Shown here: positions 1-32,000 of the stretch, piece after piece | How the letters are laid out: every line of letters starts with the position of its first letter | Position numbering within the stretch: position 1 is the first letter of the stretch | Source: Candidatus Iainarchaeum sp. | GTDB taxonomy: Archaea > Iainarchaeota > Iainarchaeia > Iainarchaeales > CSSED10-239 | Direction: 5' to 3' | Length of the DNA: 32,000 nt | Assembly (NCBI GenBank): GCA_937968065.1 | Contig: CALBUD010000033.1 | Coordinates: 632 to 32,631, forward strand | Made by a program: the position numbers and the translations under genes | Notes under the pieces: generated by a model | The model's database searches: none | Told to the model about the DNA's origin: nothing | The model's input: the letters and a program-made list of their open reading frames with translations, nothing else

Positions 1-3000
1 CATCTTAAAAGAGAAGTTGAATCAACTAAGGTGTTATCTGATGAATCTTTTAATCTATAATAAACATTTAAAGGATTTGTGTTTCTTGTTTCAACTTCCA
101 TTAAAACAGGAATTGCTTTACTTGGACTAAATATTAAATCAATTATGTTTTCTTGATATTTAACAGATAAAACATTTCCTCTACTTTCAATTGAAGAATT
201 AATCTTATAAATATCATTTGTTTTTGTAATATTTACTGTTCTTAAAGCGTTTGAACCATAATCAGGTGTTGTTACAACATTTTCTTCATCAATTCTTATA
301 GTATCTCCAGTATATGTAACTCCATACCCTTGTCTATTATACCCTGAAGTTGTTTGTCCTACAAAACCATTAAATGGAAGTCTATAAAAAACACTATCTG
401 TTTCTGGAGAAGAAATAAAACCAAAGGTTACAAATGCTTCAGCATCAATTTCTCCATTTCTTTCAAAATTCCAAGAACTATTTTCAAATAAGAAATCTAT
501 TTTTATTCTATATTTTCCTGGAACATTAATATTTACATTATTTGTTTCATCTGAATATTGTTTTATAAATAATAAATTATTTTTGAAAAGTTTAGATAAA
601 TAACCATTATTAAAGGTGGTTGGAGATGACATTATTGAAGAAGAACCTATTTGAGAACCATCTTCTCTTGAAGCAAGACCACCATATGCAGCATCAAAAT
701 CATTTATAAAATTATTATTATATTTATCTGTTATTAAATAAACTTCAAACTCTAAAAGTTCTTTTAATCTTAAAATATCTTGTTCTGTCCATTGAGAAAC
801 AACATTATCAGGATACATCTCTTTATTAAACCACATATCAAGATAACTAATTCCATTTTCTTTAACAGTTGTTGCTGGAACTAAACAATCAGAAGTTTGA
901 GATTGCTCATAAATATCAAGTGAAACTAAAGAACTAAAACTATTATTAAAAGGATCACTATCCTCTCCAGAATAGATGATTGATAAAGAAAGATTTTCTC
1001 CAAGGATTGGAGTTGTTTCATAAAATTCTAAAATAACTTCTGTTGTGGTATCTCCTGAAGTTTGTTTTAGTTCAATTGGTATACTTGAAAGATTTCCTGT
1101 AATTTCTGTTAATTCATCTGTTGAAAAATCTCTAACATATGCTTTCTTTGGTAGTTTATTATCAAGACTTGCTGCTAAGTTTCCATTTTTATTATTTCCT
1201 GTTCTATTATCTAAAGATATTTTAACAATTAATTTTTCTTCAGAAGTTAAAATACTTACTTGATCAATTCCTGTTCTTGAAGCTGAAACATTATAATCTG
1301 CATTATATGGTTGTGCATCTTTAATATAATATGAACCAATTAAAGATTGACTTGCTAAAGATTCTGAACTTATAGGACAAGAAACTGGTTTTGAAGCTAT
1401 TAGTTCTTGTGCTTTATTAATTCTATTTAAAACAACTTGTGTTAATTGAGTTGCATCACAATAGTTTTCAGAACATTTATCTATATCTTCTAAAGACCAA
1501 GACCAATCAAGAGAGATGTTTGGAACAGCACCCTCTCCAGTTTTTCCAATCTTTCCTGTGTCTGTAACACAATCAAGAAGAGTTAAATCATAGTTTGGAG
1601 TTTCTTCTGGTTTTGATATAAAATATGCAAATCTAAATTTTCCTATATTTTCTGTATTTTTAAAAGCAGGATCTTGCATATCTATAGAATCATCTAATGT
1701 TGGATTAAAATCTATTGTTTTAAAGAAATATTTTTTTGAATTATTATTTATTTGTGTATAAAAATCATCAGAAAGATTAAATTGTAAAGGTTTTATACCT
1801 GCTTGTTCAGGCCAGATAACTTCATCTGCTCTACAGGTATATCTAAAGTCTGTTTCAAGTTCTATTTTGTTTCTAGTTGGTTTTGAACCATAACACTCGA
1901 TTGTGTGTGAAAGTTTTCCATCTTCAATAATTGGTTCAAAGATACCACTACAGTTTTGGTTTTTAATTATTTGTGCATCAAACTTATCAAAAATAAATCC
2001 TGGTTGGTTACATAAAGTATAGTTTGATAAAGAAAGATTAGCATTCTTTGTAAGTTTATTTTTTGATGCAGGGTCTGTCATGGTTATAAGATCATGGTAG
2101 GTTATATATCTTGAACCTGTAATATCAAAAATATTTATATAAGAGGTGCTTTCTGAAACATCATTTATTTGTATAATCTTTGTTTTTTCATGATTTGGTT
2201 TTGTATGTTTTTGTTCAATATCTAAAAATCTATTAACTATTAAAGGATATTCAAACTCATTTTTCCAACTAGTTGCAGCCCAAGAAACTAAAGCCCCAAC
2301 TCCAATAGCTGCCCAACCATAAGGCCCAATTCCTGCAAGAGCTGTGTAGATGGCAGTTGAACCTAAAGCGGTTCCAGCTGTTCCTGCAGCTGCTGCAGCA
2401 GCTGCTGTTGCTGCACTAACACCAATAGCTCCACTATAAACACCAATTGCAAGTGTTGAGGTTGTTAAAATTCCTCCAACCCAAGGAACCCACCCAACAT
2501 CTTCATCAATAACTGTTATATATGAAAGATCTCCAAGAGCTTTAAAATTCATTTTTTTAAAAGATTCATCATTTCTATTAAAATTACTTGATAAATATTC
2601 TACAAAAGTTGAGTTTTCAGAAGAAACAGCATTAACTGTTCTATAAGATAGATCCTCTTGACTTGTAGGAATCTCTTTAACATAATCCCATGGATTTTTT
2701 TCTGTATTATTATTATATAATCTTTTTATTTCAGAAACTTTATTTTCAGAAATTTCAATAAATGGATCTTCCATCCATAAACCTGTTTCATCTTTTGCAT
2801 TTATTTTTAAGATTGAAAATGAAGAAGTTATTGTTCTTCCAAAATTATTTTTAACAGAAATTAAATTATTAAGATAATAAGCACCAGGTGCTGTTTTTGA
2901 ATCTTTTCTTTTTATAGAAACAGTTTTTTCAGAATCATTTAAAGAAAATCTTAAAATATTTCTTTCTTCAATTCCTTCTATGATTAAATCTCTACATCCA

Positions 3001-6000
3001 TAATCATCACCATCACAAAGATTCATCTCAAAGGTTGCTTTTCCAACACATTCGTTTTTAATAGTTAGTTCTTTAGAGGAAAGATTTTCTAAAACAAATA
3101 ATCCTCCTTGATTTATTTTTCTTCCAGAATCATAATAAGAGAAACAATCTGTAAGATTCATAACAGAGATATTTGTTTTTAATAATAAATCATTTGGTGA
3201 TTTATTAACATATACAGCTCCCTCTTCAGTTTCAACTTCAGCATTAAAATAAATATTTGTTTTAATATCTGCAAACTTTATACCATTGGTGTTATAAGTT
3301 ATCTCTAAGGTATACTCTTCTTCAGGTCTTATTTCACTTACAACTGTTCTATAGTAGTTTTCTGATAGTTGCACTTGATTTCCAGAACCTGGACCAATAA
3401 CTCTTAAGAAATAAACACCATATCTATCTGCTTCTGAAACTATTTTTGCTTGTAGATTTTTAATTGATATAGGAGTTCTTCCTTCTTTTGAAAGACATGT
3501 GTTTTTAATACTTAGAGAGGTTGTTTGACTTGTTGTTGAAACAACAGTTGTCCATTCTCCAAGACCACCAGTAACAACTAAACAATCATCTGCAAACACA
3601 CCTGTTCCAACAGATAATTTAAGATTTACTGGAATATTAAATAAATAATCATAGTTATTTAAAGAAACTGTTCCTGTTAAAGAACCTATGATATTCTCAC
3701 TAACAGGATGTGTTCTTGCACTCTCTGAGGGTGCAAACTTAACTGTCATTTCTCTTGTTTGGTTTGCAGGTATTGTAAATCCAGATTGTATCTGGTTATT
3801 TATATAATTTTTAGTTTGTGCAAGGTTTAATAAATAAGATTTATTAAAAGAAATATCAATATCATTTATTTCTTTTAAAGTTAATGGATATTCTGTTTTG
3901 TTTTCTAAAGTCAAAGTATATAACTCTCCATCAATATCGTTTTTATGAATAAATGCTTGAAGAGGAGAATCACTTGTTATTTTTTGAGAGTTGTGTAAAA
4001 TATCAATAATATCTTTTGTTACTGTAAACTCAACAGGCTCTGCATAATATTTAGATTTTGTAGCTTCAATTACAAAGGTTTCATTATTTCTTAAAGCAGG
4101 AAGAGAAATATTTGCTTTTCCTTCTCTGTTTGTTTTTCTACCTGTTGATATTGTTAAGTATTCATTATTTATTTTTTGTAAAACATTTATATTTGCACCT
4201 TCTATTAAACCTCCTTGACTATCTTTAACAATAACTGTTAAAATAAAAGGAACTGAAGGTATTATGTTTCTTGGTTCATAATCAATAACCATAGTGTCAA
4301 TCTCTGTTGTTGAAAAGTTAATAGGTAAGGTGTAGATAACTTCATTGTCAGAGACAAGTCTTGTGACTAATTTTGACTGTCCAAGAATTAATGGAAACAA
4401 TCCTAAATTAAAACCAATTTCTGAAAAAGGAGAAAGATTTTCTTTTAAAAGCTCTGGAGTGTTAAAAGGAATATTAAAATTATTTTCTCCAATTGGTGTT
4501 TCTCCAATAGATGAAAACTCACCAAAGATTTCATAATTTTTAATGTTTACCATAGATGTAGGATTATCATCTTTATTTAAGTTTTTAACAGAAAGTCTTG
4601 AAGATGGATAGTTGTTTGAAGAGGAGTTTGTGATTATATATTCAAGAATATAATCTGAGTTAACTTTTAAAGGTACAAGATTATTTTCTTTAATATCATA
4701 TCTTAACCCTTCTAAAACATCCACATACTGTCCTGAAAAACAAAAAGTATCATTACATAAACTTTTAGCATCCACAAAATACTGAAGTTGTGTAAAATTA
4801 TTTCCTAAAAGATTAATATTTCCTTGAGAGGATGCATAAAAGAAAGAAACAAGATCATTTGTTTTAGCATTCTTTATTCTTATAGGAATATATATCTCAT
4901 GTGTTGATGCTGGAAAATTATTTACTTGTATGTTTACAAGTTTTGATTCTAAAAAATTACCTGATTCTGTAAAAGGTTCTTTCTCATAATAGATAGAAGT
5001 TCCTAAAGTACTATTTTCAGGCATTATAAAAACAATATCTTCTTTAACATCTTCATAACTACCAGCTCTTAAAGCAAAATTAAAACCTGTTGAAGAGGGT
5101 GGCATAATAACTTTAAATCTTAAATAAAAGACTTCATTATTTTTTAAAGATTCAACCTTTTGTTCTAAAGCATTATAAAGACCAAGATATTCAACAACTG
5201 TATCTTGTGCTTGACTTGCTCTTTCTAAAACAATTTCTTTTGTAACAGTTTTGTTTTTATAGATTCTAAAAACATCTGTAAAATATGGAAGATAACCATC
5301 AGTTTCAATAAGAACATATACTCTCTTATCTGCTTTTATATCTTTAGATATTCGTCCAATATTTGTTGCAATATCAGTTCCAAGCAATTCACCTGATTCA
5401 GAATAAAAAGTAACTAATGAATTTGAAACAACATCATCTGTTTTATTTTTAATTGAAAGATTTACAGTTCCTTTTCCAATAACAACAGGTAAAGAAACAT
5501 TAGTATCTTCAGGTGGTAAGTTTCTATATTTTGAAGAAATTTCTTCAATATATAAGTTTTTAGTCTTAATTGTAAAATCAATTTCAGGAATATTTTCAAA
5601 AACAGCAACTCCGTTTTCATCAGAAACTGCATAAGAAAATAAAGGATTAATAAAATCAGCATCTCCATCATAAATCCAACTTTTAATACCAATGACAGGT
5701 TTTAAATCTTCATCAAAAATAGAAACATATATGTTTGAAACATTACTTGGTGTTATTTTTTCAAGATTAATATTATAAACTTCTAAACTAGAAGTTATTG
5801 GTATTATTTGTCCAAGATATCCTTCAGCAACAGCTTTTAGAGAATAGTTTTTATTTTTATCTATCTTAAAAATAAAACCATCTTGCTTTTCTCTTTCATC
5901 TATATTTTCAGTTCCATCTAAAAGTAAAGTTACAACAGGATATAAAGAATCTTCTAAAACCTCACCTGTATCTTTATCTTTTACAAAAACAGTAATCTCT

Positions 6001-7019
6001 CTAAGCTCTATAGCTTGATTAGTATCAGGATCTATTAAAGGATTAGAAGTGTTTTGCATATCAATAGTTAGTTCAGAAAGATAATTTTTAAAAACTTCAA
6101 CTTCTTTTTCAGATGCAAGATAATTATTCATAACATCTGTTGCTTTAACAATATATTCTCCAACAGGTATACTTGAAAAAGAACCTTGTGAATTATTTGT
6201 TTGTATTGTTCTAATTGAAGTTACAGGATCATCTTTTGAAAATAATCTTAATGTTATTGAATCATAAATATATTCTTCTCCAGAAACAACCAAAACATTA
6301 ATTGATCCAACATCTGTAACAGGACCTCTTGGTGTTAATTTTATTATTGAATCTGAAAGTTTAACAAGTAAATTTTTTTCATTATATTTATCACTTGAGA
6401 CATCAGCATACATCAGGTTACAAGAAGAAGGAATTTCTATTGCTAAAGAACCAGTTGATGTTTTTGTAAGAGAAGAGGTTACAACTTCTCTATTATCACA
6501 AACAATTGAAACTAAAAGTTCATCTGTTATTTTTTGATTTGTTAAAGTATCTTCAAAATAAATTGTTTTTTTAAAAGAACTTGGAACTTTTAAAACTGTT
6601 AATATAAAATTAAAAGTATTTCTATCAAAAACAATTTCTGTTTCAAAAAAATCATAACCTTCTTTTTCAACAATAACAGTATATAACTTTTTTTTATCAA
6701 GAGAAATTGTAAAAGAACCATTGTTATTTGTTGTATATGTGTTTGTGGTTCCATCTGATAAATTTCTTATCTTAAAATCAAAATTACTTAAGATGTTATC
6801 TTCATTATCAGCAAACCTAATAGTTATGCTTGTAAGATCTGCTTTTTTTCCAATAAAGGAATTTCCAAAAATAAAATAAAGAATAATTAAGAAAATTAAT
6901 AAAAATAAAAAAAAAGAAGTTAAAGCAAACTTTTTATCCAAAGGTGCAGTAATCTTTTTAATTGGGATTCTATCATCTACTTTTGTTAAAAAGTTTTGCC
7001 AAGATTCTTTAAAAGACAT
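1..7019 (-). CDS. Giant N-terminally anchored surface protein, paralog D. The N-terminus is in the window and the C-terminus runs off the left edge (at least 2339 codons).
   Basis: Absent from the ORF track. The minus strand has ATG at 7019..7017, preceded in frame by TAA at 7025..7023. I translated it continuously to the left edge (last full codon 5..3) without meeting a stop. It begins MSFKESWQNFLTKVDDRIPIKKITAPLDKKFALTSFFLFLLIFLIILYFIFG and the last readable residues are YYRLKDSSDNTLVDSTSLLR. The track appears to list only start-to-stop ORFs, and it lists no fragments in this frame. The module order matches the other giants. Confidence 0.9.
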   Translation of the reverse strand, partial: MSFKESWQNFLTKVDDRIPIKKITAPLDKKFALTSFFLFLLIFLIILYFIFGNSFIGKKADLTSITIRFADNEDNILSNFDFKIRNLSDGTTNTYTTNNNGSFTISLDKKKLYTVIVEKEGYDFFETEIVFDRNTFNFILTVLKVPSSFKKTIYFEDTLTNQKITDELLVSIVCDNREVVTSSLTKTSTGSLAIEIPSSCNLMYADVSSDKYNEKNLLVKLSDSIIKLTPRGPVTDVGSINVLVVSGEEYIYDSITLRLFSKDDPVTSIRTIQTNNSQGSFSSIPVGEYIVKATDVMNNYLASEKEVEVFKNYLSELTIDMQNTSNPLIDPDTNQAIELREITVFVKDKDTGEVLEDSLYPVVTLLLDGTENIDEREKQDGFIFKIDKNKNYSLKAVAEGYLGQIIPITSSLEVYNINLEKITPSNVSNIYVSIFDEDLKPVIGIKSWIYDGDADFINPLFSYAVSDENGVAVFENIPEIDFTIKTKNLYIEEISSKYRNLPPEDTNVSLPVVIGKGTVNLSIKNKTDDVVSNSLVTFYSESGELLGTDIATNIGRISKDIKADKRVYVLIETDGYLPYFTDVFRIYKNKTVTKEIVLERASQAQDTVVEYLGLYNALEQKVESLKNNEVFYLRFKVIMPPSSTGFNFALRAGSYEDVKEDIVFIMPENSTLGTSIYYEKEPFTESGNFLESKLVNIQVNNFPASTHEIYIPIRIKNAKTNDLVSFFYASSQGNINLLGNNFTQLQYFVDAKSLCNDTFCFSGQYVDVLEGLRYDIKENNLVPLKVNSDYILEYIITNSSSNNYPSSRLSVKNLNKDDNPTSMVNIKNYEIFGEFSSIGETPIGENNFNIPFNTPELLKENLSPFSEIGFNLGLFPLILGQSKLVTRLVSDNEVIYTLPINFSTTEIDTMVIDYEPRNIIPSVPFILTVIVKDSQGGLIEGANINVLQKINNEYLTISTGRKTNREGKANISLPALRNNETFVIEATKSKYYAEPVEFTVTKDIIDILHNSQKITSDSPLQAFIHKNDIDGELYTLTLENKTEYPLTLKEINDIDISFNKSYLLNLAQTKNYINNQIQSGFTIPANQTREMTVKFAPSESARTHPVSENIIGSLTGTVSLNNYDYLFNIPVNLKLSVGTGVFADDCLVVTGGLGEWTTVVSTTSQTTSLSIKNTCLSKEGRTPISIKNLQAKIVSEADRYGVYFLRVIGPGSGNQVQLSENYYRTVVSEIRPEEEYTLEITYNTNGIKFADIKTNIYFNAEVETEEGAVYVNKSPNDLLLKTNISVMNLTDCFSYYDSGRKINQGGLFVLENLSSKELTIKNECVGKATFEMNLCDGDDYGCRDLIIEGIEERNILRFSLNDSEKTVSIKRKDSKTAPGAYYLNNLISVKNNFGRTITSSFSILKINAKDETGLWMEDPFIEISENKVSEIKRLYNNNTEKNPWDYVKEIPTSQEDLSYRTVNAVSSENSTFVEYLSSNFNRNDESFKKMNFKALGDLSYITVIDEDVGWVPWVGGILTTSTLAIGVYSGAIGVSAATAAAAAAAGTAGTALGSTAIYTALAGIGPYGWAAIGVGALVSWAATSWKNEFEYPLIVNRFLDIEQKHTKPNHEKTKIIQINDVSESTSYINIFDITGSRYITYHDLITMTDPASKNKLTKNANLSLSNYTLCNQPGFIFDKFDAQIIKNQNCSGIFEPIIEDGKLSHTIECYGSKPTRNKIELETDFRYTCRADEVIWPEQAGIKPLQFNLSDDFYTQINNNSKKYFFKTIDFNPTLDDSIDMQDPAFKNTENIGKFRFAYFISKPEETPNYDLTLLDCVTDTGKIGKTGEGAVPNISLDWSWSLEDIDKCSENYCDATQLTQVVLNRINKAQELIASKPVSCPISSESLASQSLIGSYYIKDAQPYNADYNVSASRTGIDQVSILTSEEKLIVKISLDNRTGNNKNGNLAASLDNKLPKKAYVRDFSTDELTEITGNLSSIPIELKQTSGDTTTEVILEFYETTPILGENLSLSIIYSGEDSDPFNNSFSSLVSLDIYEQSQTSDCLVPATTVKENGISYLDMWFNKEMYPDNVVSQWTEQDILRLKELLEFEVYLITDKYNNNFINDFDAAYGGLASREDGSQIGSSSIMSSPTTFNNGYLSKLFKNNLLFIKQYSDETNNVNINVPGKYRIKIDFLFENSSWNFERNGEIDAEAFVTFGFISSPETDSVFYRLPFNGFVGQTTSGYNRQGYGVTYTGDTIRIDEENVVTTPDYGSNALRTVNITKTNDIYKINSSIESRGNVLSVKYQENIIDLIFSPSKAIPVLMEVETRNTNPLNVYYRLKDSSDNTLVDSTSLLR
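2266..2500 (-). other. Internal Gly/Ala-rich hydrophobic segment of about 78 aa (2-3 potential TM spans) in paralog D, about 1500 aa from the N-terminal anchor.
   Basis: My translation reads VGWVPWVGGILTTSTLAIGVYSGAIGVSAATAAAAAAAGTAGTALGSTAIYTALAGIGPYGWAAIGVGALVSWAATSW. The DNA here is a conspicuous GC-rich island of gct/gca codons in an otherwise AT-rich gene. Confidence 0.75.
5225..6850 (-). other. Array of about 6 prealbumin/CarboxypepD_reg-like repeats in paralog D.
   Basis: From my translation, examples are ITIRFADNEDNILSNFDFKIRNLSDGTTNTYTTNNNGSFTISLDKKKLYTVIVEKEGYDFF and ITVFVKDKDTGEVLEDSLYPVVTLLLDG...KNKNYSLKAVAEGYLG. Boundaries are approximate. Confidence 0.55.
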
Positions 7020-7030
7020 GTTTTATACTT

Positions 7031-7035
7031 TCCTT
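7031..7035 (-). promoter_or_regulatory. Weaker SD-like AAGGA, 11 nt upstream of the paralog D ATG.
   Basis: The minus strand reads TCTAAAGGAAAGTATAAAACATG. The gap to the 962-aa gene stop is 22 nt. Confidence 0.4.
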
Positions 7036-7041
7036 TAGATT

Positions 7042-9930: not shown

Positions 9931-9938
9931 ATTTTTTA

Positions 9939-9942
9939 CACC
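9939..9942 (-). promoter_or_regulatory. Shine-Dalgarno-like (A)AGGTG, 8 nt upstream of the 962-aa gene ATG.
   Basis: The minus strand reads AAAAAAGGTGTAAAAAATATG. Confidence 0.55.
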
Positions 9943-10013
9943 TTTTTTTTAAATAAATTTTAAAATATTTATTCTTTTAATTTTTCACACTCATTTTTTT
10001 TTAATTTTTCATC

Positions 10014-14825: not shown

Positions 14826-14833
14826 ATTTTATA

Positions 14834-14839
14834 ACCTCT
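14834..14839 (-). promoter_or_regulatory. Shine-Dalgarno-like AGAGGT, 8 nt upstream of the paralog C ATG.
   Basis: The minus strand reads CTAAGAGGTTATAAAATATG. The gap to the upstream gene is only 29 nt. Confidence 0.6.
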
Positions 14840-14854
14840 TAGTTAAAATAAAAT

Positions 14855-21880: not shown

Positions 21881-21896
21881 CAAATCACATTCTCTC

Positions 21897-21906
21897 TTAT
21901 ATATAA
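21897..21906 (-). promoter_or_regulatory. TATA-box-like TTATATATAA at -26..-17 relative to the paralog B ATG. No canonical SD is present, so this is a possible leaderless-type promoter.
   Basis: The minus strand reads ATATTATATATAAGAGAGAATGTGATTTGATG. It lies at the end of a 204-nt AT-rich spacer. Confidence 0.3.
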
Positions 21907-22058
21907 TATATTATAATATTTAACAACATAACCTTTTAAAAACTATCTTTATTTTTTTTATAAAGATAATTGTATATTATATATTTATGTGCTTATATAT
22001 TTAAATACCTTTTCATTAACATTAAAAAGTTAATATTTATAAAAATTCTTGTTTTTTT

Positions 22059-22066
22059 AAAAAAAA
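22059..22066 (-). terminator. T8 tract on the coding strand, 22 nt after the 558-aa gene stop. Terminator candidate.
   Basis: The minus strand reads TGATAATTTAACTTAAAAAAAAGATTTTTTTTAAAAAAAC. Confidence 0.35.
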
Positions 22067-22087
22067 TCTTTTTTTTAAGTTAAATTA

Positions 22088-23764: not shown

Positions 23765-23773
23765 TTTTATTTT

Positions 23774-23778
23774 TCCTT
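23774..23778 (-). promoter_or_regulatory. Weaker SD-like AAGGA, 9 nt upstream of the 558-aa gene ATG.
   Basis: The minus strand reads CTTAAAGGAAAAATAAAAATG. Confidence 0.4.
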
Positions 23779-23810
23779 TAAGTTAAATATCTTTAATTTA
23801 AAAATATTAA

Positions 23811-23820
23811 TTATATAGAA
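23811..23820 (-). promoter_or_regulatory. TATA-box-like TTCTATATAA about 47-56 nt upstream of the 558-aa gene ATG.
   Basis: The minus strand reads TTCTATATAATTAATATTTTTAAATTAAAGATATTTAACTTAAAGGAAAAATAAAAATG. This would give a leader of about 25 nt carrying the SD-like motif. Confidence 0.25.
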
Positions 23821-23872
23821 GTAGTTTATATTTTTATAAGTTTCTTTTTTTAATTAAAAAATATTTTTTAAT

Positions 23873-23899
23873 AAAAAATAAAAAAAATTAATAAAAAAA
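23873..23899 (-). terminator. Oligo-T tracts (T7, T8, T6 on the coding strand) directly after the paralog A stop, an archaeal-style intrinsic terminator candidate.
   Basis: The minus strand after TAA reads CTTTTTTTATTAATTTTTTTTATTTTTTATT. No stable hairpin is needed for archaeal termination. Confidence 0.4.
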
Positions 23900-23900
23900 G

Positions 23901-26900
23901 TTATTGTTCTTCTAAAACTACAGAACAATTATCAACATTTACAATTTCACTTGTAAAATCTTGAGTGTTAACTTCAGTATATGGAATAATATCTATTGTA
24001 TATCTTGACTCATATTCATTATCTAAAGGTTCAATATAATTCATTTCTACAACATACAAGACATTCTTTTTAAACTCCATATTTTTTAAAAATTCAATTG
24101 AATAATTAAGATTTGTTTTTCCTGAACTTTTTAAATAATTATTTCCAGCAACATTTCCTAAAATACCACATCCAAGTCCTCTTATAAGTCCTGCTGAAAA
24201 GTTTGCTGTTTTTGCCCATCTTGTTTGTTTTGCTAAAAGAGGTATTTTTCCACTTGAATGAATATTTGTCATTTTAGTTACAACATCATTTGGTATATGC
24301 ACTTGTGTTCCAACTCTTGTACCAGATCTTAGACCAGTTACAATATCATCTATTTGACTTTTTGAAGACTCTAGTGCACTTTTTGTTTTATTTAATTGTG
24401 CAATTTTTTTAGCTCTGTTTGAAGTATATTTTTTAGATTGCAGATCTTTTATTTGTGTATCTATTTTTGCAAGATCATCAGAAAGTGTTTTTGCATGTCC
24501 ATCAAATGTTTTTAAAAGATCATCATAATCAGTTGCATCAATTGCTTTAAGGTTTGGATCTATAGTTGCAGGAGGAGTTGTTCCTGGTGTTGCAGGTGTT
24601 GCAGCTCTAGAAATTTCATAATTATTTAATTTATTAAGATAACTTGTATCTTTTCCTTTAAAATATTTTATTATATCTTCTTGAGATGACATTGTAGGAG
24701 GATATCCTTGTATACTACCATCAAATTTAGATCTACCTATAATTTCTAATAAATCATCTAATTGAGCAGATGATATTTCTCTAAAATTTACTGTTGCAGC
24801 AGCTCCACTTCCTGTAACCACTTTAGGGTTGTCTAATAAAGACTTTACAGTATTATCTATAACATTAGGAGGTTTTGAAAAAGTAAATTGGGCTTGATTA
24901 ATATTAAGTCCTGGAACAAGATTTCCATTTACATTTATTGTATTTGGATTTGGAAGATAGTTATTTGACATTGTTTTAACATAATTATTTAAATGATTAA
25001 CCATTTTTCCACTTGGTGCTCTTGGTCTATTAACAATTGCAACACCAGTTCCACCAGTTCCAGGAGTTGTTGTTCCAGGAACTACAACATCTGCTGTTGC
25101 AGGCAAAGCATCAATTGCAGCTAAGTTCTTTGCAGAGAACAAAGCATCTTTACTTGTTGAAACACCAGCATGCACACCACCAAACAAAGTACTTATTTTT
25201 TGAAGTGCATTTCCAAACACTTCAACAGTACTTGCAAGAGGACTAACTTCTGTTGCTAAGATTCTACTGAAAAAATCATCAATAGAATCAACAACACTTC
25301 CATCAGTCATAACATTCATCATTATTCCTGCAGCAGGTATACCACATGCAAACACACCACAATCAAAAACAATTCCTTTAAACAAAGCAATCTGTCCAAT
25401 AATAGGGATTAAAGAAAGTCCTGCATTAACACCAATAGAACAAAGAGCACAAGCTCCAAAGCAAGTTGCAAAGTAAGTTCCAGAATTGGTCAAAGCTTTA
25501 TTCCATTTAGAGGTTGTTTTTTGAGAAGGATCTTTAATATCACATCCTAATTTTTCATATTCATAAAACAATCTTTCATTATATTTATCACTAAGTATAA
25601 ATTTTTCAAGAGAAGAACATAGAGCTTCTTTATCTTGGTTATTATAACCAGCAGACCAATCAACTAAAGCAGAAGCATATTTTGGAAATTGTTTATTTTC
25701 ATTTTTATTATGTTCTGTTAAAATAATATTATAAGTTTCTTCAAGTAATTTTTCAGGTGTGATTGCACAAGTTTCAAGTTTAATAACTGATGTTGCATTT
25801 CTTTGTCCAATCTTACCTTCTCCAGAATAAATACTGTTTGCAACAACTTCAATTTCTTTACCAACAAGTTCAGGAATGTTATTAACAGACTCTGGTTTTA
25901 CACAAACAAAAAAGTCAGCTTCTTTATTTTTTAAAACATTAACATTTATTGTTTCAGATAAAGAATCATCAGCTCCTTTTTTAAAACCAACTGAAAGATT
26001 TGGAACTTGTGTTGAACTAATTCTTAATACTTCATCAATTGAAGAACTTATCTTTAAGTTAGTACAAGATAAATCTTCATTTAAAGGTAAAGAAACATTT
26101 CTTGTTGTAAATTTTAAATCTCCAGCTTCAATAACTTTTAAGATAAGCATATAATCTTTATTTTCAGAAACACAAACATCTGTTAAATATTCATTTTTAA
26201 CAAACATAGAGCTTACAACATTTATAAAGTTTCTTGAAACATCTTCTGAAATTCCAAGTTCTGAAAGTTTATATTTTTCATTTAATAAAACATTTATTTG
26301 TTCAGGATTTGGAGTTTCAAGAACACGAAGATCATTAAAAGATATTTTTGCAAGAGCATTTTCATTTTCAGAAATATTTCCAACAGAGATGTTTAAGAAA
26401 TTATTTCTTGTAGCACCTTCGCTTCTTCCAGAAACATAACGAAGATCAGGATCACTTCCAAACTTTCCTATACCTTTAATCAAACCTTTTGAAAGTTCTT
26501 CATCTCCTGTAAATAATGTAAGCCAAGTTCCTTCTCTTTGATTCTTTGAAAGAGGAATATCCCAAGGAAGATAATTTAGATAATTAATAATATTTTTTTC
26601 ACAAGTTTCTGTTTTTTCATAATCAACAACAGTTATATAATAGTAAGCTCTTTCAGGATAAATATAATCTGGACTTGCTGCAACAAAACCATCTATCTCA
26701 ACTTTATATCTTCCACAACTTGTAAGTTCATTTGAAACAAAGATTTTATTTCCACCAGCATAAACACCTAAAGAACTAAATCCTTCAGTTGTCTTAAAAG
26801 GATTAACATCAATTAAATAATTTTTAAAATCATAATTTGATTTTGAAAGAACATGACGTATAAGATCTTGTGAGATTGAATCATTTTGCATATAGAAAGT

Positions 26901-29900
26901 AAACTCTAAAGGTCTAATATTTCCTCCAAGCTCAGATATTTTACAGAAACCTCTTTGTGCATCAACTAAAGAACAACCAGTGTTTAAAGTTTTTGCTTGT
27001 GCTTGAGAAGAAACTTGTTTAATTTGACTTTGAAGTTCATTTATCTTTTTTAAAATTAATTCTGAAGAAGAGTAAGCATCACAATAACCTGAGTTTTCAG
27101 TACAAAGATTTGAAGAAATTACAGGTCTTGAAAAAGAAGTTGTTTGTGTAACATCTTCACAGATAGGTATTGTTGAAATTATTGAAACTTCTCTATCTCT
27201 TATTTGATCTGAAGTTAAATCTTCTATGTTTATAGAAACTAAGAAATCTTCAGAAGTTACAGGAAGTCTTGAAGTTAATAAGCTTCCAATTAAGATAACA
27301 GGCATGCTTGGAGAACCACCAAGTGCTGTTGCTCTAAGTTCTAAATTATAAGTTGCTGTTTGATTAGGGTAAATAATATTATTTCCACTTAAAGGAATTA
27401 TTCTTAAAGGATTTGCACCAAATGTTTCAAAGTAAGAATCTTGTTTTTTATCAATACCGATAATTGAAACAGGTTCTGCACAATAGTTTGTAACAGAAAC
27501 ATTTCTTGTTCTAACTTCTCCAACCTTTAAACTAAAATCTATTTTTTTATTACTTATCTTTAAACAGTTTGGAGAAGATATTGAAAAGATTAATTGTGTG
27601 GTTGCATGTATAGGGTTATTAACACCCATTGCTTTTCCTGTAACTGTTATAAGTCTATTTTCCATGGTTGATTGTGCAATATTTACTTTAAATTTTAAAT
27701 CAACAGGAACTGACTTTCCTGGTTCAATAATTCCAATCTCTAAAGGGAAAGGTGTAACCTCTATGTTTGAAGTTACCATTTTTGGAGTTTGTCCAACATG
27801 AATATCTGTTATTGGAACAGAACCTATATTTTTTATAAAAAATCTTGCTGAGTTTTCTGCAGCTCTTTGTGGATGAAGTTGAGTCATTGGAACATTTACA
27901 ATATCTGGAGTTATCATTAAAGCTCTACTTAAATCTATAAGATCAACATTTAAAGTTGAAGGAGAGATTGAATAAAAATTATTATGCCATAGGATATTAT
28001 ATTTATAAGTTATTGGTCTTGTTCTATTTGAACTATTTCTAATAATAACATCATATGCTTTTTCTTCACCTGGAAGAATTGTCATGTGTGCTAAAGAAAT
28101 TTCTAAATCATTGTTTGAAGAAGAAGAAGTTAAAACAGATTGTGGAGTAAAAGTTACTGCTTGTTCACAATTGTTTTTAATAATATAAAAAGTTGTGTTT
28201 TCTGTACTCTCAGAAGTTGTAATTGGTTTTGAAGAATAATAAGTATAATAGTTTGGATCATTATAAACTAAAGTATTATCATTTCCAGTATAGTTTTGAA
28301 CATAGTTTTGAGAGGTTAGATAATCATTATATGTGCTTTCTGTTTGATAAGGTGAAAGTAAAGGATTTTGTTGTTGGTTAATACCTGTATAATCATAATT
28401 ATTTATTGGTGTATTAAAAATATCAGGAGGTGTATATTTAAGATTTAAACCAACAAAAGTATTTGCATGTTCTGTTATCTCTATACATTCATTTAAAAGA
28501 AGTCCTTTATTTATTCTTATAGGAACAACAGTTGTAACCTCTCTTGAACCAATAGTTGAGATTATTGGAACATATGCAAAAGCTGTTGTAAAATTAAGAT
28601 TGTTTGAAATAGTTACAACCACATCAAAATTCTGTGAATTTTTTCTATTAATAACATTTGCTCCTCTAACATCTATAAAGATATCACTAGGACCATCTAT
28701 CCAGATTGGTTCTCCAAACCTTATGTTGTTTGCAGGATATTCAGAATTATTATAAAGTGAAAAAAATTGTTGAGAAATCATCTGATCAAGACCAAAATTA
28801 ATAACTATTTCTTTTGGTGTTAAAGTTAATAAAGAATTATCAACAATAAAGATTTCTTTTTCATAAGGGATATATCCATAGCTTTCAACAACAACTAAAA
28901 CTCTTGAAACATTAAATTTATTATCAATTGTATATCTTCCAGCTCTTCCAATAGTTCCAGAAGCTTTTGTTGAAGATATAAACGTTCCTCTCTCATCATA
29001 AAAACTAATAAAAGCATTATCTATTGGTGTTGAAGTTACTGAGTCAAAAACATCAATTGAAAATCTTGAACCATAATCAATAAAAACATCAGGATTAAAT
29101 ATTACTCTCATTTCTTTATTATCATAAACATTAAAACTTATTCTTTCGTTGTATATCTCTTGATCTGTTAAAACACCTTTTGCTTTAAGATCAATATATG
29201 AAGTTCCTATCTCTTTTGCAATAAATGATAAATAAACTTTTTTTAAAACTCCTTCTGAAACATTTATTCCTTCTCTTGAAGCTTCAAAAATTGTAGTATA
29301 AAAATCAGGATTAATATTTTCAAATTTAGAATCTGAAAATAAATTTAATGAAACTAGAGGAAATGTTTTTGAAATTTCTGCAAAAAGACTTACTTGATTA
29401 TTTTTTAATGAAAAGATACTTGTTTCAAGAACATAACTTTTATCTTTAATTGCAAAGAAATCTTCAACTGAAAATTCATTATCTCTATCATCAATAAACT
29501 TATGTGAGAAACAAAAGTCTCCTTTACAATCTAAAGGAACATCAAATAGATTAATTGAAACTTCTTTGGTGTCTGCATAAAGTGCTTCTTTTTGATTATT
29601 TGAATAACTTTGATTTAAGATAGGATCAATTGGATCTCTAAAATATAGTTTGTTTTCTTCAAATAAAACTCTATAATTAAATTTTAATTTTGTGGAAGAT
29701 AAATCAACAGCTCTAACCTTTACTCTTATTTGTTTGTTACCTAAAGAAACATCATCTATCCATTTTATCTCAAGCCATTTGTTTAAGACTTGTGAAGAAC
29801 CTTCGTTTAAAACATCTATTGATTGTCTTCCTGGTAGTGGAGAAGGGTTATAGGTTGTCCCATATTTAAAGCTTGTAGAATCCATGGCACTAAATCCTGT

Positions 29901-31934
29901 TATACCATAACTCATCTCTTCAGAATCATTTTGATAATCTTCACCAGCTCTTATATGCACTTCTCCTTTGTATACATTTTCAGGGAAAAGAATATCAAAA
30001 ACAAGATAATAATCTTTATTTGGTGTTATATAATTTGTTTTAATTCCTTTATCATCTAAAACACTTACAAAATCAATGATTGGATAATCAGAAGCATTTG
30101 TTGCTTTTGAAAGATCTATTCTTAAGTATCCATCTTGTTCAGCATCATCTGAACTAAAGTTAACTGTTGTTCTATTAAAGTTTTCATCAGTTATCTCTGC
30201 AATTAAATCTTTATATCCTTCTGTGTTAAAAACAACTTCTTTTCCTAAAACTAAATCTTCATCATATAAAACAGTTCCATCTTTTGTTTTTATTAAAAGA
30301 TTTCCTGAAGTTATTTTATTTCCATTTTCATCATAAAGATCAAGCTTTAATATTTTTGAAGCTCCATCTATAACAAAGATAATTTTGTTTTCTCTTAAAG
30401 GATCTATCTTTATATCATAATAGTCAAATATCTCTCCAACATATGCATAGACTCTATAAGTTTTATCTATCCTTAAAGGAATTCCTAAAGAACCTGTAAG
30501 ATCTGTTTGAAGAGAAGTGTTATAAGGTATCTCTGTTGTTGTTTCTAGATCTAGATTTATAAGTTCATATATCTTTATGTTTGATTTAGAAACTGGCATA
30601 TTTTTTTCATCAACAACAAAGATGTTTAAAACAGCACTGTTAATAACATCTATTCTTTCTAAAATAAATTCTATTTTTGATTCGTTATCTAAGTTAACTA
30701 TTTTATGTTCACAAAGATAATCTTGTTTACAAGCAGTTACTATTATTTCTGAATTAGAATCTAATCCTTCAAACTTTACTTGTCCAAGATTATTTGTATT
30801 TCCAGAATCTATAACATTATTATTTAAAGAATAAATAGTTACTGAAACATCTTCTAAAGATAAAAAGTTAGATTTTGATCTTGTCTCGACATCTAAAAAG
30901 TTTCCACCAAGTTCTAAAACAACTGTAAAGGTTTCTTCTAAGTTATTCACTCTTATTGAAAGTTCTTCATCACTTACATATGTTTTATATCCTTCTTTTT
31001 TAACTCTATATGAAATTGTTTCTCCAAAATCAACATATGCAAGAGCTTTTCCATCTATTGTTTTTTGAGAAGCTATCTCTTCTCCTTGGAAATTAAAAAC
31101 AGAAACTTCAGCGTCTTCTACAAAATTATTAAAAATATCTAAAACAACAAAAGTAACTTTACTTTTTCCTTCAAGATAAAGTCTTGAAACATCCATTTCA
31201 ATTATTTTTTCTTGTTCAAATGAAGTTAGTCTAAAATTTGTTTCTTTAAAGTCTTCATAGTTATCTGCTTTAACTATAAGTTCTATATCTTTGTTTAATG
31301 GAAGTTCTAAAATAATATAATGATCATTATAAATATCAACAACTTCTTCTGAAACAACTTTTTGATTACTAATAAAATAACTTGCAGTTAATTTTCCTGA
31401 AGAAATTGTTCTTTTGTTTTCTCTATCTTTTAGTTTTACTTTTAAAAAACCATATTCTACATTTTCTTCAAAAATAATTGAAACTTGTTGATTTTTATTT
31501 GTTATTAAAAGAGATTGAACTTTATCAGGATAACCATCTTTTGTTGCTGTTAAAGAATAGGTGTTTCCTATTTTTAATTTTGCTTTTCTTGAAGAATTGT
31601 TTTCAACAATTCCTGAAAAAATTGTTTTTTGAGAATCTGTAATGGTTACAAAAACATTTGTTAAAGGATTTCCTTGATAATCTCTAAAATCATAAGTTAT
31701 GGTTGTTTGACCTGACATGAAGAATAATAAGAATATAAGTATTATTAAAATTAGTAAAAAGGTTGATAGAACTATTGGAAAGGCAGGAAGTCCTTTTTCT
31801 TCTATATAGTTATTTAATTTATTTAAAGGAATTCCTTTTTCTGTAAACCAATCACTCATCTTAAGATAACCATTTTCTAAAGAATTATAAAATCTTGAAA
31901 ATATGTTTTGAGGTGGTTTATTTTCTAGAACCAT
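23901..31934 (-). CDS. Giant N-terminally anchored surface protein, paralog A (2677 aa), with an internal Cys-rich hydrophobic hairpin and a distinct C-terminal region.
   Basis: Complete ORF, ATG at 31934 and TAA at 23901. The leader includes FSRFYNSLENGYLKMSDWFTEKGIPLNKLNNYIEEKG, followed by the TM helix LPAFPIVLSTFLLILIILIFLLFF. About seven 85-aa repeats and Cys-bracketed modules (TFYIIKNNCEQAVTF, RFFIKNIGSVPITDI, RNVSVTNYCAEPVSI) follow. Confidence 0.95.
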   Translation of the reverse strand: MVLENKPPQNIFSRFYNSLENGYLKMSDWFTEKGIPLNKLNNYIEEKGLPAFPIVLSTFLLILIILIFLLFFMSGQTTITYDFRDYQGNPLTNVFVTITDSQKTIFSGIVENNSSRKAKLKIGNTYSLTATKDGYPDKVQSLLITNKNQQVSIIFEENVEYGFLKVKLKDRENKRTISSGKLTASYFISNQKVVSEEVVDIYNDHYIILELPLNKDIELIVKADNYEDFKETNFRLTSFEQEKIIEMDVSRLYLEGKSKVTFVVLDIFNNFVEDAEVSVFNFQGEEIASQKTIDGKALAYVDFGETISYRVKKEGYKTYVSDEELSIRVNNLEETFTVVLELGGNFLDVETRSKSNFLSLEDVSVTIYSLNNNVIDSGNTNNLGQVKFEGLDSNSEIIVTACKQDYLCEHKIVNLDNESKIEFILERIDVINSAVLNIFVVDEKNMPVSKSNIKIYELINLDLETTTEIPYNTSLQTDLTGSLGIPLRIDKTYRVYAYVGEIFDYYDIKIDPLRENKIIFVIDGASKILKLDLYDENGNKITSGNLLIKTKDGTVLYDEDLVLGKEVVFNTEGYKDLIAEITDENFNRTTVNFSSDDAEQDGYLRIDLSKATNASDYPIIDFVSVLDDKGIKTNYITPNKDYYLVFDILFPENVYKGEVHIRAGEDYQNDSEEMSYGITGFSAMDSTSFKYGTTYNPSPLPGRQSIDVLNEGSSQVLNKWLEIKWIDDVSLGNKQIRVKVRAVDLSSTKLKFNYRVLFEENKLYFRDPIDPILNQSYSNNQKEALYADTKEVSINLFDVPLDCKGDFCFSHKFIDDRDNEFSVEDFFAIKDKSYVLETSIFSLKNNQVSLFAEISKTFPLVSLNLFSDSKFENINPDFYTTIFEASREGINVSEGVLKKVYLSFIAKEIGTSYIDLKAKGVLTDQEIYNERISFNVYDNKEMRVIFNPDVFIDYGSRFSIDVFDSVTSTPIDNAFISFYDERGTFISSTKASGTIGRAGRYTIDNKFNVSRVLVVVESYGYIPYEKEIFIVDNSLLTLTPKEIVINFGLDQMISQQFFSLYNNSEYPANNIRFGEPIWIDGPSDIFIDVRGANVINRKNSQNFDVVVTISNNLNFTTAFAYVPIISTIGSREVTTVVPIRINKGLLLNECIEITEHANTFVGLNLKYTPPDIFNTPINNYDYTGINQQQNPLLSPYQTESTYNDYLTSQNYVQNYTGNDNTLVYNDPNYYTYYSSKPITTSESTENTTFYIIKNNCEQAVTFTPQSVLTSSSSNNDLEISLAHMTILPGEEKAYDVIIRNSSNRTRPITYKYNILWHNNFYSISPSTLNVDLIDLSRALMITPDIVNVPMTQLHPQRAAENSARFFIKNIGSVPITDIHVGQTPKMVTSNIEVTPFPLEIGIIEPGKSVPVDLKFKVNIAQSTMENRLITVTGKAMGVNNPIHATTQLIFSISSPNCLKISNKKIDFSLKVGEVRTRNVSVTNYCAEPVSIIGIDKKQDSYFETFGANPLRIIPLSGNNIIYPNQTATYNLELRATALGGSPSMPVILIGSLLTSRLPVTSEDFLVSINIEDLTSDQIRDREVSIISTIPICEDVTQTTSFSRPVISSNLCTENSGYCDAYSSSELILKKINELQSQIKQVSSQAQAKTLNTGCSLVDAQRGFCKISELGGNIRPLEFTFYMQNDSISQDLIRHVLSKSNYDFKNYLIDVNPFKTTEGFSSLGVYAGGNKIFVSNELTSCGRYKVEIDGFVAASPDYIYPERAYYYITVVDYEKTETCEKNIINYLNYLPWDIPLSKNQREGTWLTLFTGDEELSKGLIKGIGKFGSDPDLRYVSGRSEGATRNNFLNISVGNISENENALAKISFNDLRVLETPNPEQINVLLNEKYKLSELGISEDVSRNFINVVSSMFVKNEYLTDVCVSENKDYMLILKVIEAGDLKFTTRNVSLPLNEDLSCTNLKISSSIDEVLRISSTQVPNLSVGFKKGADDSLSETINVNVLKNKEADFFVCVKPESVNNIPELVGKEIEVVANSIYSGEGKIGQRNATSVIKLETCAITPEKLLEETYNIILTEHNKNENKQFPKYASALVDWSAGYNNQDKEALCSSLEKFILSDKYNERLFYEYEKLGCDIKDPSQKTTSKWNKALTNSGTYFATCFGACALCSIGVNAGLSLIPIIGQIALFKGIVFDCGVFACGIPAAGIMMNVMTDGSVVDSIDDFFSRILATEVSPLASTVEVFGNALQKISTLFGGVHAGVSTSKDALFSAKNLAAIDALPATADVVVPGTTTPGTGGTGVAIVNRPRAPSGKMVNHLNNYVKTMSNNYLPNPNTINVNGNLVPGLNINQAQFTFSKPPNVIDNTVKSLLDNPKVVTGSGAAATVNFREISSAQLDDLLEIIGRSKFDGSIQGYPPTMSSQEDIIKYFKGKDTSYLNKLNNYEISRAATPATPGTTPPATIDPNLKAIDATDYDDLLKTFDGHAKTLSDDLAKIDTQIKDLQSKKYTSNRAKKIAQLNKTKSALESSKSQIDDIVTGLRSGTRVGTQVHIPNDVVTKMTNIHSSGKIPLLAKQTRWAKTANFSAGLIRGLGCGILGNVAGNNYLKSSGKTNLNYSIEFLKNMEFKKNVLYVVEMNYIEPLDNEYESRYTIDIIPYTEVNTQDFTSEIVNVDNCSVVLEEQ
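25305..25485 (-). other. Internal Cys-rich hydrophobic hairpin (about 2 TM spans) in paralog A, near aa 2150-2210.
   Basis: The track protein reads GTYFATCFGACALCSIGVNAGLSLIPIIGQIALFKGIVFDCGVFACGIPAAGIMMNVMTDG. This is two hydrophobic stretches of about 25 aa containing 6 Cys. Confidence 0.7.
28205..28436 (-). repeat. N/Y/Q/T-rich low-complexity loop in paralog A, lying within the Cys-to-Cys interval 28167..28487.
   Basis: The loop reads YTPPDIFNTPINNYDYTGINQQQNPLLSPYQTESTYNDYLTSQNYVQNYTGNDNTLVYNDPNYYTYYSSKPITTSESTEN. It is flanked by ECIEITEH upstream and TFYIIKNNCEQAV downstream. Confidence 0.8.
30150..31700 (-). other. Array of about 7 prealbumin/CarboxypepD_reg-like (PEGA-like) repeats in paralog A.
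   Basis: Segments of about 85 aa recur by eye. Examples are KVTFVVLDIFNNFVEDAEVSVFNFQGEEIASQKTIDGKALAYVDFGETISYRVKKEGYKTY and KILKLDLYDENGNKITSGNLLIKTKDGTVLY...EGYKDL. Boundaries are approximate. Confidence 0.6.
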
Positions 31935-31953
31935 ATTTATTTCTTTTTTTAAT

Positions 31954-31963
31954 TATATTAAAA
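31954..31963 (-). promoter_or_regulatory. TATA-box-like TTTTAATATA at -29..-20 relative to the paralog A ATG. No SD is present, so this is a possible archaeal promoter for a leaderless or short-leader mRNA.
   Basis: The minus strand reads TTTTAATATAATTAAAAAAAGAAATAAATATG. The context is very AT-rich, so specificity is low. Confidence 0.3.
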
Positions 31964-32000
31964 TATTATATATATATATTCATAAGATATATAAAGTTTT

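Follow-up and report, generated by a model that had tools for sequence, protein, structure and literature searches.

We analyzed 32,000 nucleotides of contig CALBUD010000033.1 from Candidatus Iainarchaeum sp. (positions 632 to 32,631; the whole stretch is called the window below) and found that the window is filled by a conserved cell-surface locus made up of giant proteins, a free-standing head and a protein with a prepilin-type signal. Six open reading frames (ORFs), here named gA to gF, run in the same direction on the minus strand and, with about 10,480 codons, occupy 98.3% of the window, as an earlier note on this DNA had described. The genes gA, gC, gD and gF code for giants that are collinear, deeply diverged and true paralogs. 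The product of gE is related to the C-terminal head of gF, and gB codes for a protein with a prepilin-type signal. Directly shown are the signals for secretion or anchoring, the collinearity of the giants, the fold of their rod, the head family, the deep synteny with related loci (numbered L; homologous proteins are numbered P) and the taxon. The division of gD and gE into stalk and head, the conservation of the head as a family and the deep conservation of the gene order are points that go beyond the earlier note.

The giants are encoded at 23901-31934 (gA; 2677 amino acids, aa), 14855-21880 (gC; 2341 aa), 10014-14825 (gD; 1603 aa, a headless 'stalk') and 1-7019 (gF; more than 2339 aa, with the 3' end beyond the window edge and full-length orthologs of 2426-2466 aa). 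BLASTP alignments among gC, gD and gF were longer than 1000 aa and showed an identity of about 23% (E 1e-22 to 5e-30). HHalign was run on family profiles built from the orthologs recovered in related loci. The strongest alignment was that of gC (residues 1-1535) with gD (1-1456; E 3e-94), followed by gD with gF (9-1389 and 2-1393; E 9e-64), gC with gF (12-1267 and 5-1301; E 8e-60), gA with gC (12-1063 and 3-1035; E 9e-44) and gA with gD (12-1069 and 3-1075; E 1e-26); that of gA with gF covered residues 35-665 and 18-658 (E 3e-12). Thus, except for the last pair, the E values ranged from 1e-26 to 3e-94, and the proteins are in register from the leader onwards. Off-diagonal alternatives reflect internal repeats. 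Because the main diagonal far outscored them, the kinship of the giants is more than a sharing of generic immunoglobulin (Ig) repeats, the outcome that would have counted against the earlier note. Its claim of a shared module order throughout, however, stands for part of the set only: gC, gD and gF stay in register to about residue 1300-1500, but for gA the alignment stops near aa 1070, and beyond that only a short 'neck' motif (about 1611-1635) is shared. Common to all four giants are the leader with one transmembrane helix, six prealbumin-like repeats, a CxxxxC region and a seventh repeat. For gC, the ORF call begins at a TTG codon at 21883 (giving 2342 aa), with an in-frame ATG one codon on, at 21880; the ATG is the likely start because the conserved leader opens with 'MGL...'. 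A GTG-initiated ORF of 115 aa lies antisense within gC (18246-18593) and is the sole plus-strand ORF of at least 100 aa in the window; it is most likely spurious.

Each giant has a single N-terminal hydrophobic helix, as judged by hydropathy, and an N-terminal hydrophobic segment is also found in gE and gB. The 27-46 residues ahead of the helix conform to a family-wide consensus, MG..LKDFYY.LEDKYY.FLDKLD..GIPVYKIVDPIDK.[IV]PSF, which was found in the paralogs of the window and in the giants of distant lineages; a Pfam search of this leader at relaxed thresholds produced noise and no family. Leader and helix together span aa 1-75 in gA and aa 1-60 in gD. We infer that they act as a signal-anchor that stays uncleaved, the conserved leader being a cytoplasmic module; both the orientation and the lack of cleavage are deduced from sequence. 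A class III signal at the N-terminus of the giants themselves, for which 'KG/IP' before the transmembrane helix of gA and gC was considered (a slash marks the presumed processing site here and below), was rejected, as the consensus 'DK.[IV]PSF' has no Gly at position -1.

Following the helix, an iterated hidden Markov model (HMM) seeded on one repeat detected five to six units of the prealbumin/CarboxypepD_reg type per giant, in six slots of about 88 aa each between aa ~65 and ~605. The same HMM found a seventh unit at about 930-1050 in each of them. In gA, the repeats cover aa ~82-525 and the seventh unit aa 960-1046; in gD, the six repeats cover aa 68-605. The leader, single helix and six to seven repeats read earlier from the sequence were thus recovered by the leader consensus, the hydropathy and the repeat HMM, respectively. 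Pfam matches on the window proteins were to CarboxypepD_reg, SpaA, bMG3, Big_1 and SdrD_B, and NCBIfam gave generic repeat matches only. About 200 aa past the sixth repeat sits the CxxxxC motif (the region is aa 606-810 in gD), with Cys signatures at aa 755 in gF, 805 in gD, about 781-782 in gC and 803 in gA (CxxxxC at 803-808), all within a few nucleotides of where they had been placed before. In an alignment of 24 orthologs and paralogs, the conservation of its C, F and C columns is 90% or more. The other conserved Cys residues of the giants occur in paired, bracketing positions, and gC has Cys-bracketed β-sandwich modules after the seventh repeat. In gD, the β-sandwich rod continues to aa ~1420 and is followed by a highly conserved CxDLERYEFDL (aa 1416-1426). 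The tail that follows is poorly conserved (0.38) and ends in an acidic repeat, TPEDETPDDE; this acidic stretch (TPEDETPDDETPDDETPEDE...) is encoded by a 15-nucleotide tandem repeat present in 7.1 copies (10007-10112). The gD orthologs measure 1603-1935 aa, and most of the variation falls within this tail.

The fold of the rod was examined by modeling gD aa 590-1470 with AlphaFold2, using a 24-sequence alignment that included paralogs and distant homologs. The model had a mean predicted local distance difference test score (pLDDT) of 82.9 and was all-β, with about seven β-sandwich modules, as counted by eye from the strand pattern, and with CxxxxC in a short inter-strand turn. When compared with the PDB and BFVD using Foldseek, it matched only multi-domain arrays of the Ig, ASH or macroglobulin (MG) type, with TM-scores of 0.12-0.17, and gave no functional lead. 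The matches included Hydin/CPC1 of ciliary central pairs, the Ig-like domains of PrgB, complement C3/C5, bacterial and animal α-2-macroglobulins, cadherins and viral DUF11/Ig proteins. With the six N-terminal repeats, the rod has roughly 13-14 β-sandwiches and, from the dimensions of Ig domains, could reach tens of nanometers if extended, by our estimate 30-60 nm. The matches to bacterial and eukaryotic α-2-macroglobulins and to complement raise the question of whether the giants are membrane-anchored protease traps, like the MG-domain proteins ECAM/YfhM of bacteria. The weak Pfam matches to bMG3 and MG4 fit this idea, as do the N-terminal membrane anchor and a size like that of bacterial α-2-macroglobulin. 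The MG matches are, however, below the Pfam cut-offs, and the TM-scores are those of generic β-sandwich similarity. Moreover, none of the conserved Cys motifs (CxxxxC, the Cys brackets and YCD) is of the CxEQ type, although no explicit search for a CxEQ pattern was run, and the all-β gD-core model is without a helical thioester domain. We therefore rejected an α-2-macroglobulin identity, which we regard as extremely improbable, because the conserved Cys residues included no thioester motif and the model no thioester domain.

The C-terminal regions of the giants, described earlier as variable, proved to be conserved to different degrees. The free-standing head, gE (7042-9930; 962 aa), aligned through its aa 271-947 with the C-terminus of gF (1781-2462 of a full-length ortholog; HHalign E 6e-40) and, more weakly, with gC 1901-2225 (HHalign probability 92%). 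It is thus the fifth related protein that the earlier note had counted. In gF, the head starts at aa ~1771 and extends to the end (head HMM match E 7e-84); gC carries a degenerate copy at aa ~1895-2340, and neither gA nor gD has a head. Instead, the C-terminal ~1600 aa of gA form a gA-specific region that is itself conserved, at 46% identity in the gA of L021 and at 23% identity (E 3e-26) in the gA-like giant of L022. The start of the head region is marked in the five related proteins by the neck motif, C...LDW...C...YCD[AS]TQ[FL], followed by a helix-like, amphipathic stretch. The neck lies at aa 339-375 in gE, ~1849-1870 in gF, 1941-1960 in gC and 1611-1635 in gA, being present even in the last, whose C-terminal region is otherwise unrelated. 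The N-terminus of gE has a hydrophobic segment of its own, MKNINKIFGIILIALFMLSFVAPISA/NE, which is probably a cleavable Sec-type signal.

A search of 1.84 billion representative proteins with the gE profile gave 595 matches at E <= 1e-3, 291 of them at E <= 1e-30. Most were proteins of 2200-3250 aa with the match at the extreme C-terminus. All those sampled were annotated as 'hypothetical protein' or 'carboxypeptidase regulatory-like domain-containing protein', and they came from metagenome-assembled genomes (MAGs) of Candidatus Diapherotrites, from one Candidatus Micrarchaeota MAG and from MAGs of unclassified 'archaeon' entries. Within gE, conservation peaks in the core of the head, aa 540-962 (mean of 0.77, against 0.61-0.71 elsewhere), and an alignment of 34 diverse members has invariant D, R, Y, W, G, P and C and no invariant H, S or E. 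The 34-member profile found no relative in Pfam or among PDB sequences. By these searches, the head is an orphan domain and founds a new domain family. A Foldseek search with an AlphaFold2 model of gE returned one generic sandwich only and, given the low confidence of the model, was not used.

Several homologs bear on how a headless stalk and a free-standing head came to be neighbors. In five proteins of more distant lineages (P0017-P0021; 2209-2689 aa), a gD-like N-terminal portion of ~1450 aa is fused to a gE-like C-terminal portion of ~700 aa. L020 has a divided gF ortholog instead, broken at the equivalent point into products of 1451 and 976 aa (13033-20399). By the fused proteins and the split gF, gD and gE are the two halves of one split giant, and, to judge from these gene structures, the boundary between stalk and head is a recurrent site of gene fission. 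In one MAG (L009, 14911-19742), two extra genes (279 and 1329 aa) separate the orthologs of gD and gE.

We compared all ORFs of the related loci with the window proteins by BLAST to determine how far the gene order is conserved. The order gA-gB-gC-gD-gE-gF was found at 50-65% identity in L001/L003, L002, L010, L017 and L021, and at 33-48% identity in L006, L008, L009, L011, L013 and L020. At about 25% identity, gA-gB-gC-gD persists in L022, and L027 has a gB-like gene, a gC-like gene, a fused gD+gE and a gF-like gene; a gB-like gene also precedes a gC-like giant in L024 and L025. Since the paralogs are individually conserved in a fixed order, each appears to be an old, separately maintained component. 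This pattern argues for non-redundant roles or co-assembly, rather than for recent duplication or simple antigenic variation. The taxon is indicated by a scan with the gD profile of one genome per species. It matched the complete genome of Ca. Forterrea multitransposorum (CP045477.1; 839,632 bp) at 62% identity, together with MAGs of Ca. Iainarchaeum, of 'Ca. ainarchaeum' and of unclassified archaea, the gD orthologs of Forterrea and Ca. Iainarchaeum being 62-63% identical; a genome scan with gB alone gave no match. Forterrea belongs to the Candidatus Iainarchaeota (Diapherotrites), in the kingdom Nanobdellati (DPANN). By the gD matches, the locus belongs to an ultrasmall DPANN archaeon with Ca. 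Forterrea and Ca. Iainarchaeum as its relatives, the kind of organism to which the earlier note had turned for comparison. At about 33 kb, it would correspond by our estimate to roughly 4% of the ~840-kb Forterrea genome.

The fixed order and the separate, deep conservation of each paralog suggest obligate co-assembly, and could also be those of a structural envelope. In that case, the paralogs would build one hetero-oligomeric lattice, a canopy like a surface layer (S-layer) or tetrabrachion, or would act as spacers, a molecular ruler fixing the distance between membrane and S-layer. We regard this as the main rival reading, with clearly less than even weight. A reduced genome here devotes a great deal of its length to one locus, strong conservation is seen in the leader and in the parts of the giants nearest the membrane, and no S-layer family was matched elsewhere in the loci examined. 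Some orthologs have faint NOMO1-like Pfam matches, and in eukaryotic NOMO rods of prealbumin-like domains do serve as spacers. Against a lattice, however, none of the six window proteins matched an S-layer family of the PF05123, PF05124, TIGR01564 or TIGR01567 type in Pfam or NCBIfam. Moreover, Micrarchaeota, a related phylum, also carry the giant family, yet have a separate, abundant 101-kDa S-layer protein of the PF05123 type (bioRxiv 10.1101/2021.04.28.441871), and the giants, at 180-300 kDa, compare with 40-200 kDa for typical S-layer proteins (bioRxiv 10.1101/2021.04.28.441871).

Between gA and gC lies gB (22088-23764; 558 aa), the gene that the earlier note had called pilin-like. It occupies the same place in related loci with the same order, and gB-like genes stand ahead of giants in distant ones. 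Its product begins MFNQKG/FNLFTAMIAL... (MFNQKG/FNLFTAMIALMLVSITIVFIY from the signal through the helix), that is, with a short charged stretch, Gly at -1 and a hydrophobic helix of ~20 aa. Among 15 homologs of 23-55% identity, G6, F7, N8, L9, F10, T11 and A12 are at least 90% conserved, with the pattern [KR]G/FNLFTA. By this conservation, gB carries a textbook class III (prepilin-type) signal. The remainder is a predicted globular part of ~530 aa with conserved Cys residues, which had no match in Pfam, NCBIfam, PHROGs or PDB sequences. A gene for an archaeal prepilin peptidase (Peptidase_A24/Arc_PepC) starts 8 nucleotides past the stop codon of the distant giant P0021 (L016, 11976-13046) and is the sole direct link that we saw between the giants and pilin-processing machinery. 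Type IV pili have been reported in reference genomes of Diapherotrites and Micrarchaeota (PMC8561730). Probably, a prepilin peptidase processes gB, which then takes its place within or next to a structure like a type IV pilus, where it partners the fibrils.

A different use of the head and of gB can also be envisaged, in which the locus captures or degrades nutrients at the cell surface for an auxotroph. On their stalks, the heads would hold new kinds of enzyme or of substrate-binding module away from the cell, and gB would be a binding protein with a class III signal, as in the Sulfolobus bindosome. The invariant D, R, Y and W of the head core, found across the 34 members, fit a defined ligand or an active site, large non-pilin proteins with class III signals do occur in archaea, and DPANN archaea rely on external metabolites. 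The head alignment, however, contains no invariant His, Ser or Glu, no enzyme or solute-binding family was matched in Pfam, NCBIfam or PDB sequences, and the neighborhoods of the loci examined contain no transporter genes. We consider this scavenging role unlikely.

The neighborhoods of the related loci contained no gene for an ATPase, a pilus platform or a transporter within 10 kb in any locus examined. The source contig measures just 32,631 nucleotides, and flanking genes were therefore read from related loci. Past the window end, downstream of gF, related genomes (L017, 20388-22898; L020, 20413-22892) code for a small secreted protein of 122-142 aa and for a secreted protein of 806-893 aa with Gly-rich GGxGG repeats that look β-helix-like by eye. 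Neither had a Pfam match, and both may be part of the same surface island. The upstream context is known from L021 and L022 only, as a metagenome scan with gA yielded one 4-kb fragment. In L021, gA is preceded by genes for a 154-aa protein resembling a winged helix-turn-helix protein and for a 111-aa membrane protein. In L022, a 190-aa membrane protein similar to Exosortase_EpsH (766-1338) is encoded directly upstream of the gA-like giant; the window giants have no C-terminal hydrophobic sorting signal. Some orthologs (P0005, P0006, P0009 and P0021; 1800-2200 aa) bear automatic names from the Joint Genome Institute (JGI), such as 'nitrate reductase NapAB chaperone NapD / YqgV' and 'RNase P/MRP subunit p29', which are evidently spurious.

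In distant loci, a polytopic membrane protein of ~155-160 aa is encoded beside the giants (L015, 44-508; L024, 9742-10224; L027, 9474-9941). It is not found in the window, and identity between the copies of L015 and L024 is 31% (E 1e-16). A small membrane protein next to giants could be read as an immunity protein. The giants would then resemble polymorphic toxins and would deliver C-terminal modules into neighboring cells upon contact, a reading to which their size, the surface-anchored stalk and a separable C-terminal module also lend themselves. Yet the head shows conservation rather than polymorphism in its roughly 600 clusters, no toxin domain was recognizable, no small immunity-like gene follows the heads in the window, and the membrane protein is itself conserved between lineages. 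Effector delivery is thus, in our judgment, highly unlikely.

The genes of the window are separated by gaps of 22-207 nucleotides, and its GC content is about 27%. Long T-runs that are possible archaeal oligo-T terminators follow the stop codons of gA and gB (23765-23900 and 21881-22087), and elements resembling a TATA box and B recognition element (AAAnnTTTATATA) lie upstream of gA and gC (31935-32000 and 21881-22087). Hence gA, gB and gC-gF may be separate transcription units, such matches being weak evidence at 27% GC. Scans for bacterial promoters and terminators were uninformative, the host being an AT-rich archaeon, and tRNA and Rfam scans of the window gave no match. All six proteins have isoelectric points of 4.6-4.9.

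What the locus does has to be judged from this architecture, since searches of the proteins with Pfam, NCBIfam and PHROGs detected no enzyme, ATPase or transporter domain in any of the six, as the earlier note had also found, and PHROGs gave nothing meaningful otherwise. Searches of PDB sequences with profiles of gD, gE, gB and the head returned nothing at E <= 0.1-1 bar one borderline pilin-like Ig match, and Pfam at relaxed thresholds gave noise only on the C-terminal halves, gB and gE. No characterized adhesin or S-layer operon, the other outcome that would have told against the earlier note, was matched in the PDB, Pfam or the literature searched, nor did we find in that literature a description of this family or locus. 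Our proposal is that each giant would be laid out, from N to C, as a leader of ~45 aa that is presumably cytoplasmic, a transmembrane anchor, a β-sandwich rod and a head at the C-terminus. An extended rod would bring the head up to or past the outer face of the envelope. In one of the fibrils, stalk and head would be separate products, gD staying anchored and gE being secreted on its own, and the two presumably re-associate outside the cell. The heads would bind an external partner, and the type IV pilus pathway would display gB in an accessory role. The earlier note had suggested an apparatus for cell-cell contact. The architecture agrees with this suggestion; the function is deduced, and no binding domain was identified. 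We put the chances at about even that the conserved heads let the whole set bind something outside the cell, whether a surface, a host or a partner cell, adhesion being read from the architecture. It is also conceivable, though we advance this only tentatively, that the locus specifies an ancient, multi-component surface organelle of Iainarchaeota and Micrarchaeota, in which a dedicated machinery for targeting or assembly would recognize several non-interchangeable fibrils by their common cytoplasmic leader, gB would be organized together with them, and the orphan head would be the module for host recognition in these lineages.

Several observations weigh against such an adhesive role or against the part given to gB in it. 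No known adhesive, lectin or receptor-binding domain was recognized in the window proteins or in the distal head, and the AlphaFold2 model of gE, made from an 11-sequence alignment, reached a pLDDT of only 40 and gave no usable fold for the head. N-glycosylation sequons are not more numerous in the window proteins than expected from shuffled sequences. At 558 aa, gB is three to four times the size of a typical pilin, and class III signals are also found on large non-pilin surface proteins of archaea, such as components of the Sulfolobus bindosome; 'pilin-like' therefore describes the signal of gB and not necessarily a fiber subunit. Nor is its adjacency to the giants universal, as L015 shows, and no gene for a pilus assembly ATPase or platform (PilB/FlaI, PilC/FlaJ) was found within 10 kb in L001, L015-L017, L020-L022 and L024-L027. 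Finally, an episymbiotic lifestyle is a prediction for Iainarchaeota. The paper on the Forterrea genome (PMC5905446) predicts a symbiotic lifestyle, cites earlier proposals of free-living ones and does not mention these genes. No description of giant surface proteins was found in the Tiddalikarchaeum paper.

Partner contact in DPANN archaea is unexplained beyond a few cultured Nanoarchaeota and Nanohaloarchaeota, and whether Iainarchaeota (Diapherotrites) are free-living or symbiotic is disputed. A share of about 4% of the genome, an order kept down to ~25% identity and a conserved orphan domain at the tip make the locus a testable candidate for a key surface structure. If the set does form a host-recognizing organelle, it would explain at the molecular level how a phylum of debated lifestyle attaches to its partners; if the giants are only scaffolding of the envelope, they would still show how the envelope of an uncultured phylum is built. 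In either case, the locus offers a defined domain (gE aa 540-962) and a natural split between stalk and head for experiments, and the leader, CxxxxC and head signatures could be used to annotate several hundred 'hypothetical' giants in public MAGs.

Among known systems, gB resembles archaeal class III proteins, type IV pilins and the Sulfolobus bindosome, in its short basic N-terminus, Gly at -1 and helix of ~20 aa; in size, it is like the bindosome proteins and not the pilins. It differs from both in having a globular part with no similarity to pilins or solute-binding proteins and no adjacent gene for an assembly ATPase or platform. The giants share strings of MG/prealbumin-like sandwiches with bacterial α-2-macroglobulin and complement, and the N-terminal membrane anchor with the bacterial proteins. 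Unlike these, they show neither a thioester motif among their conserved Cys residues nor a modeled helical thioester domain, and there is no evidence of a bait region. The best structural analogs of the rod are the ASH arrays of Hydin/CPC1 (Foldseek E 1e-17 to 5e-21). Both Hydin and NOMO are rigid spacers or scaffolds, and the likeness is one of fold and architecture only (TM-scores of 0.12-0.17, 9-11% identity), the cellular context being unrelated.

Tetrabrachion of Staphylothermus marinus has a membrane-anchored coiled-coil stalk with a C-terminal anchor and forms an S-layer canopy. Like the giants, it is an anchored archaeal protein whose very long stalk holds modules tens of nanometers above the membrane, a similarity drawn from its description only; in the giants, by contrast, the stalk is a string of β-sandwich beads, the anchor is N-terminal and no similarity to tetrabrachion in sequence was detected. 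SPEARE proteins of Nanohaloarchaeota contain serine-protease, adhesion and restriction-endonuclease domains and are larger than the giants described here. With them and with the giant proteins of DPANN archaea and of the Candidate Phyla Radiation (CPR), the giants have in common a very large size, a predicted surface location and an origin in ultrasmall archaea with reduced genomes, as well as a role in host interaction that is proposed and unproven in each case. Unlike in SPEARE, no protease or nuclease family was detected here with Pfam or NCBIfam, and the leader, CxxxxC and head are peculiar to this family. The tandem β-sandwich stalk, distal globular module and surface anchoring recall bacterial fibrillar adhesins of the SdrD, SpaA or PrgB type. 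These adhesins, however, are anchored by a C-terminal LPXTG motif or through the type I secretion system (T1SS), whereas the giants have an N-terminal transmembrane anchor and carry the head at the C-terminus. An archaeal host, an orphan head, four to five ancient paralogs in a fixed order, and a stalk and head separable as genes further set them apart. The locus is thus a variation on the theme of fibrillar surface proteins, one that brings in a new domain family and in which several paralogs are organized in an unusual way that has been conserved over deep divergence.

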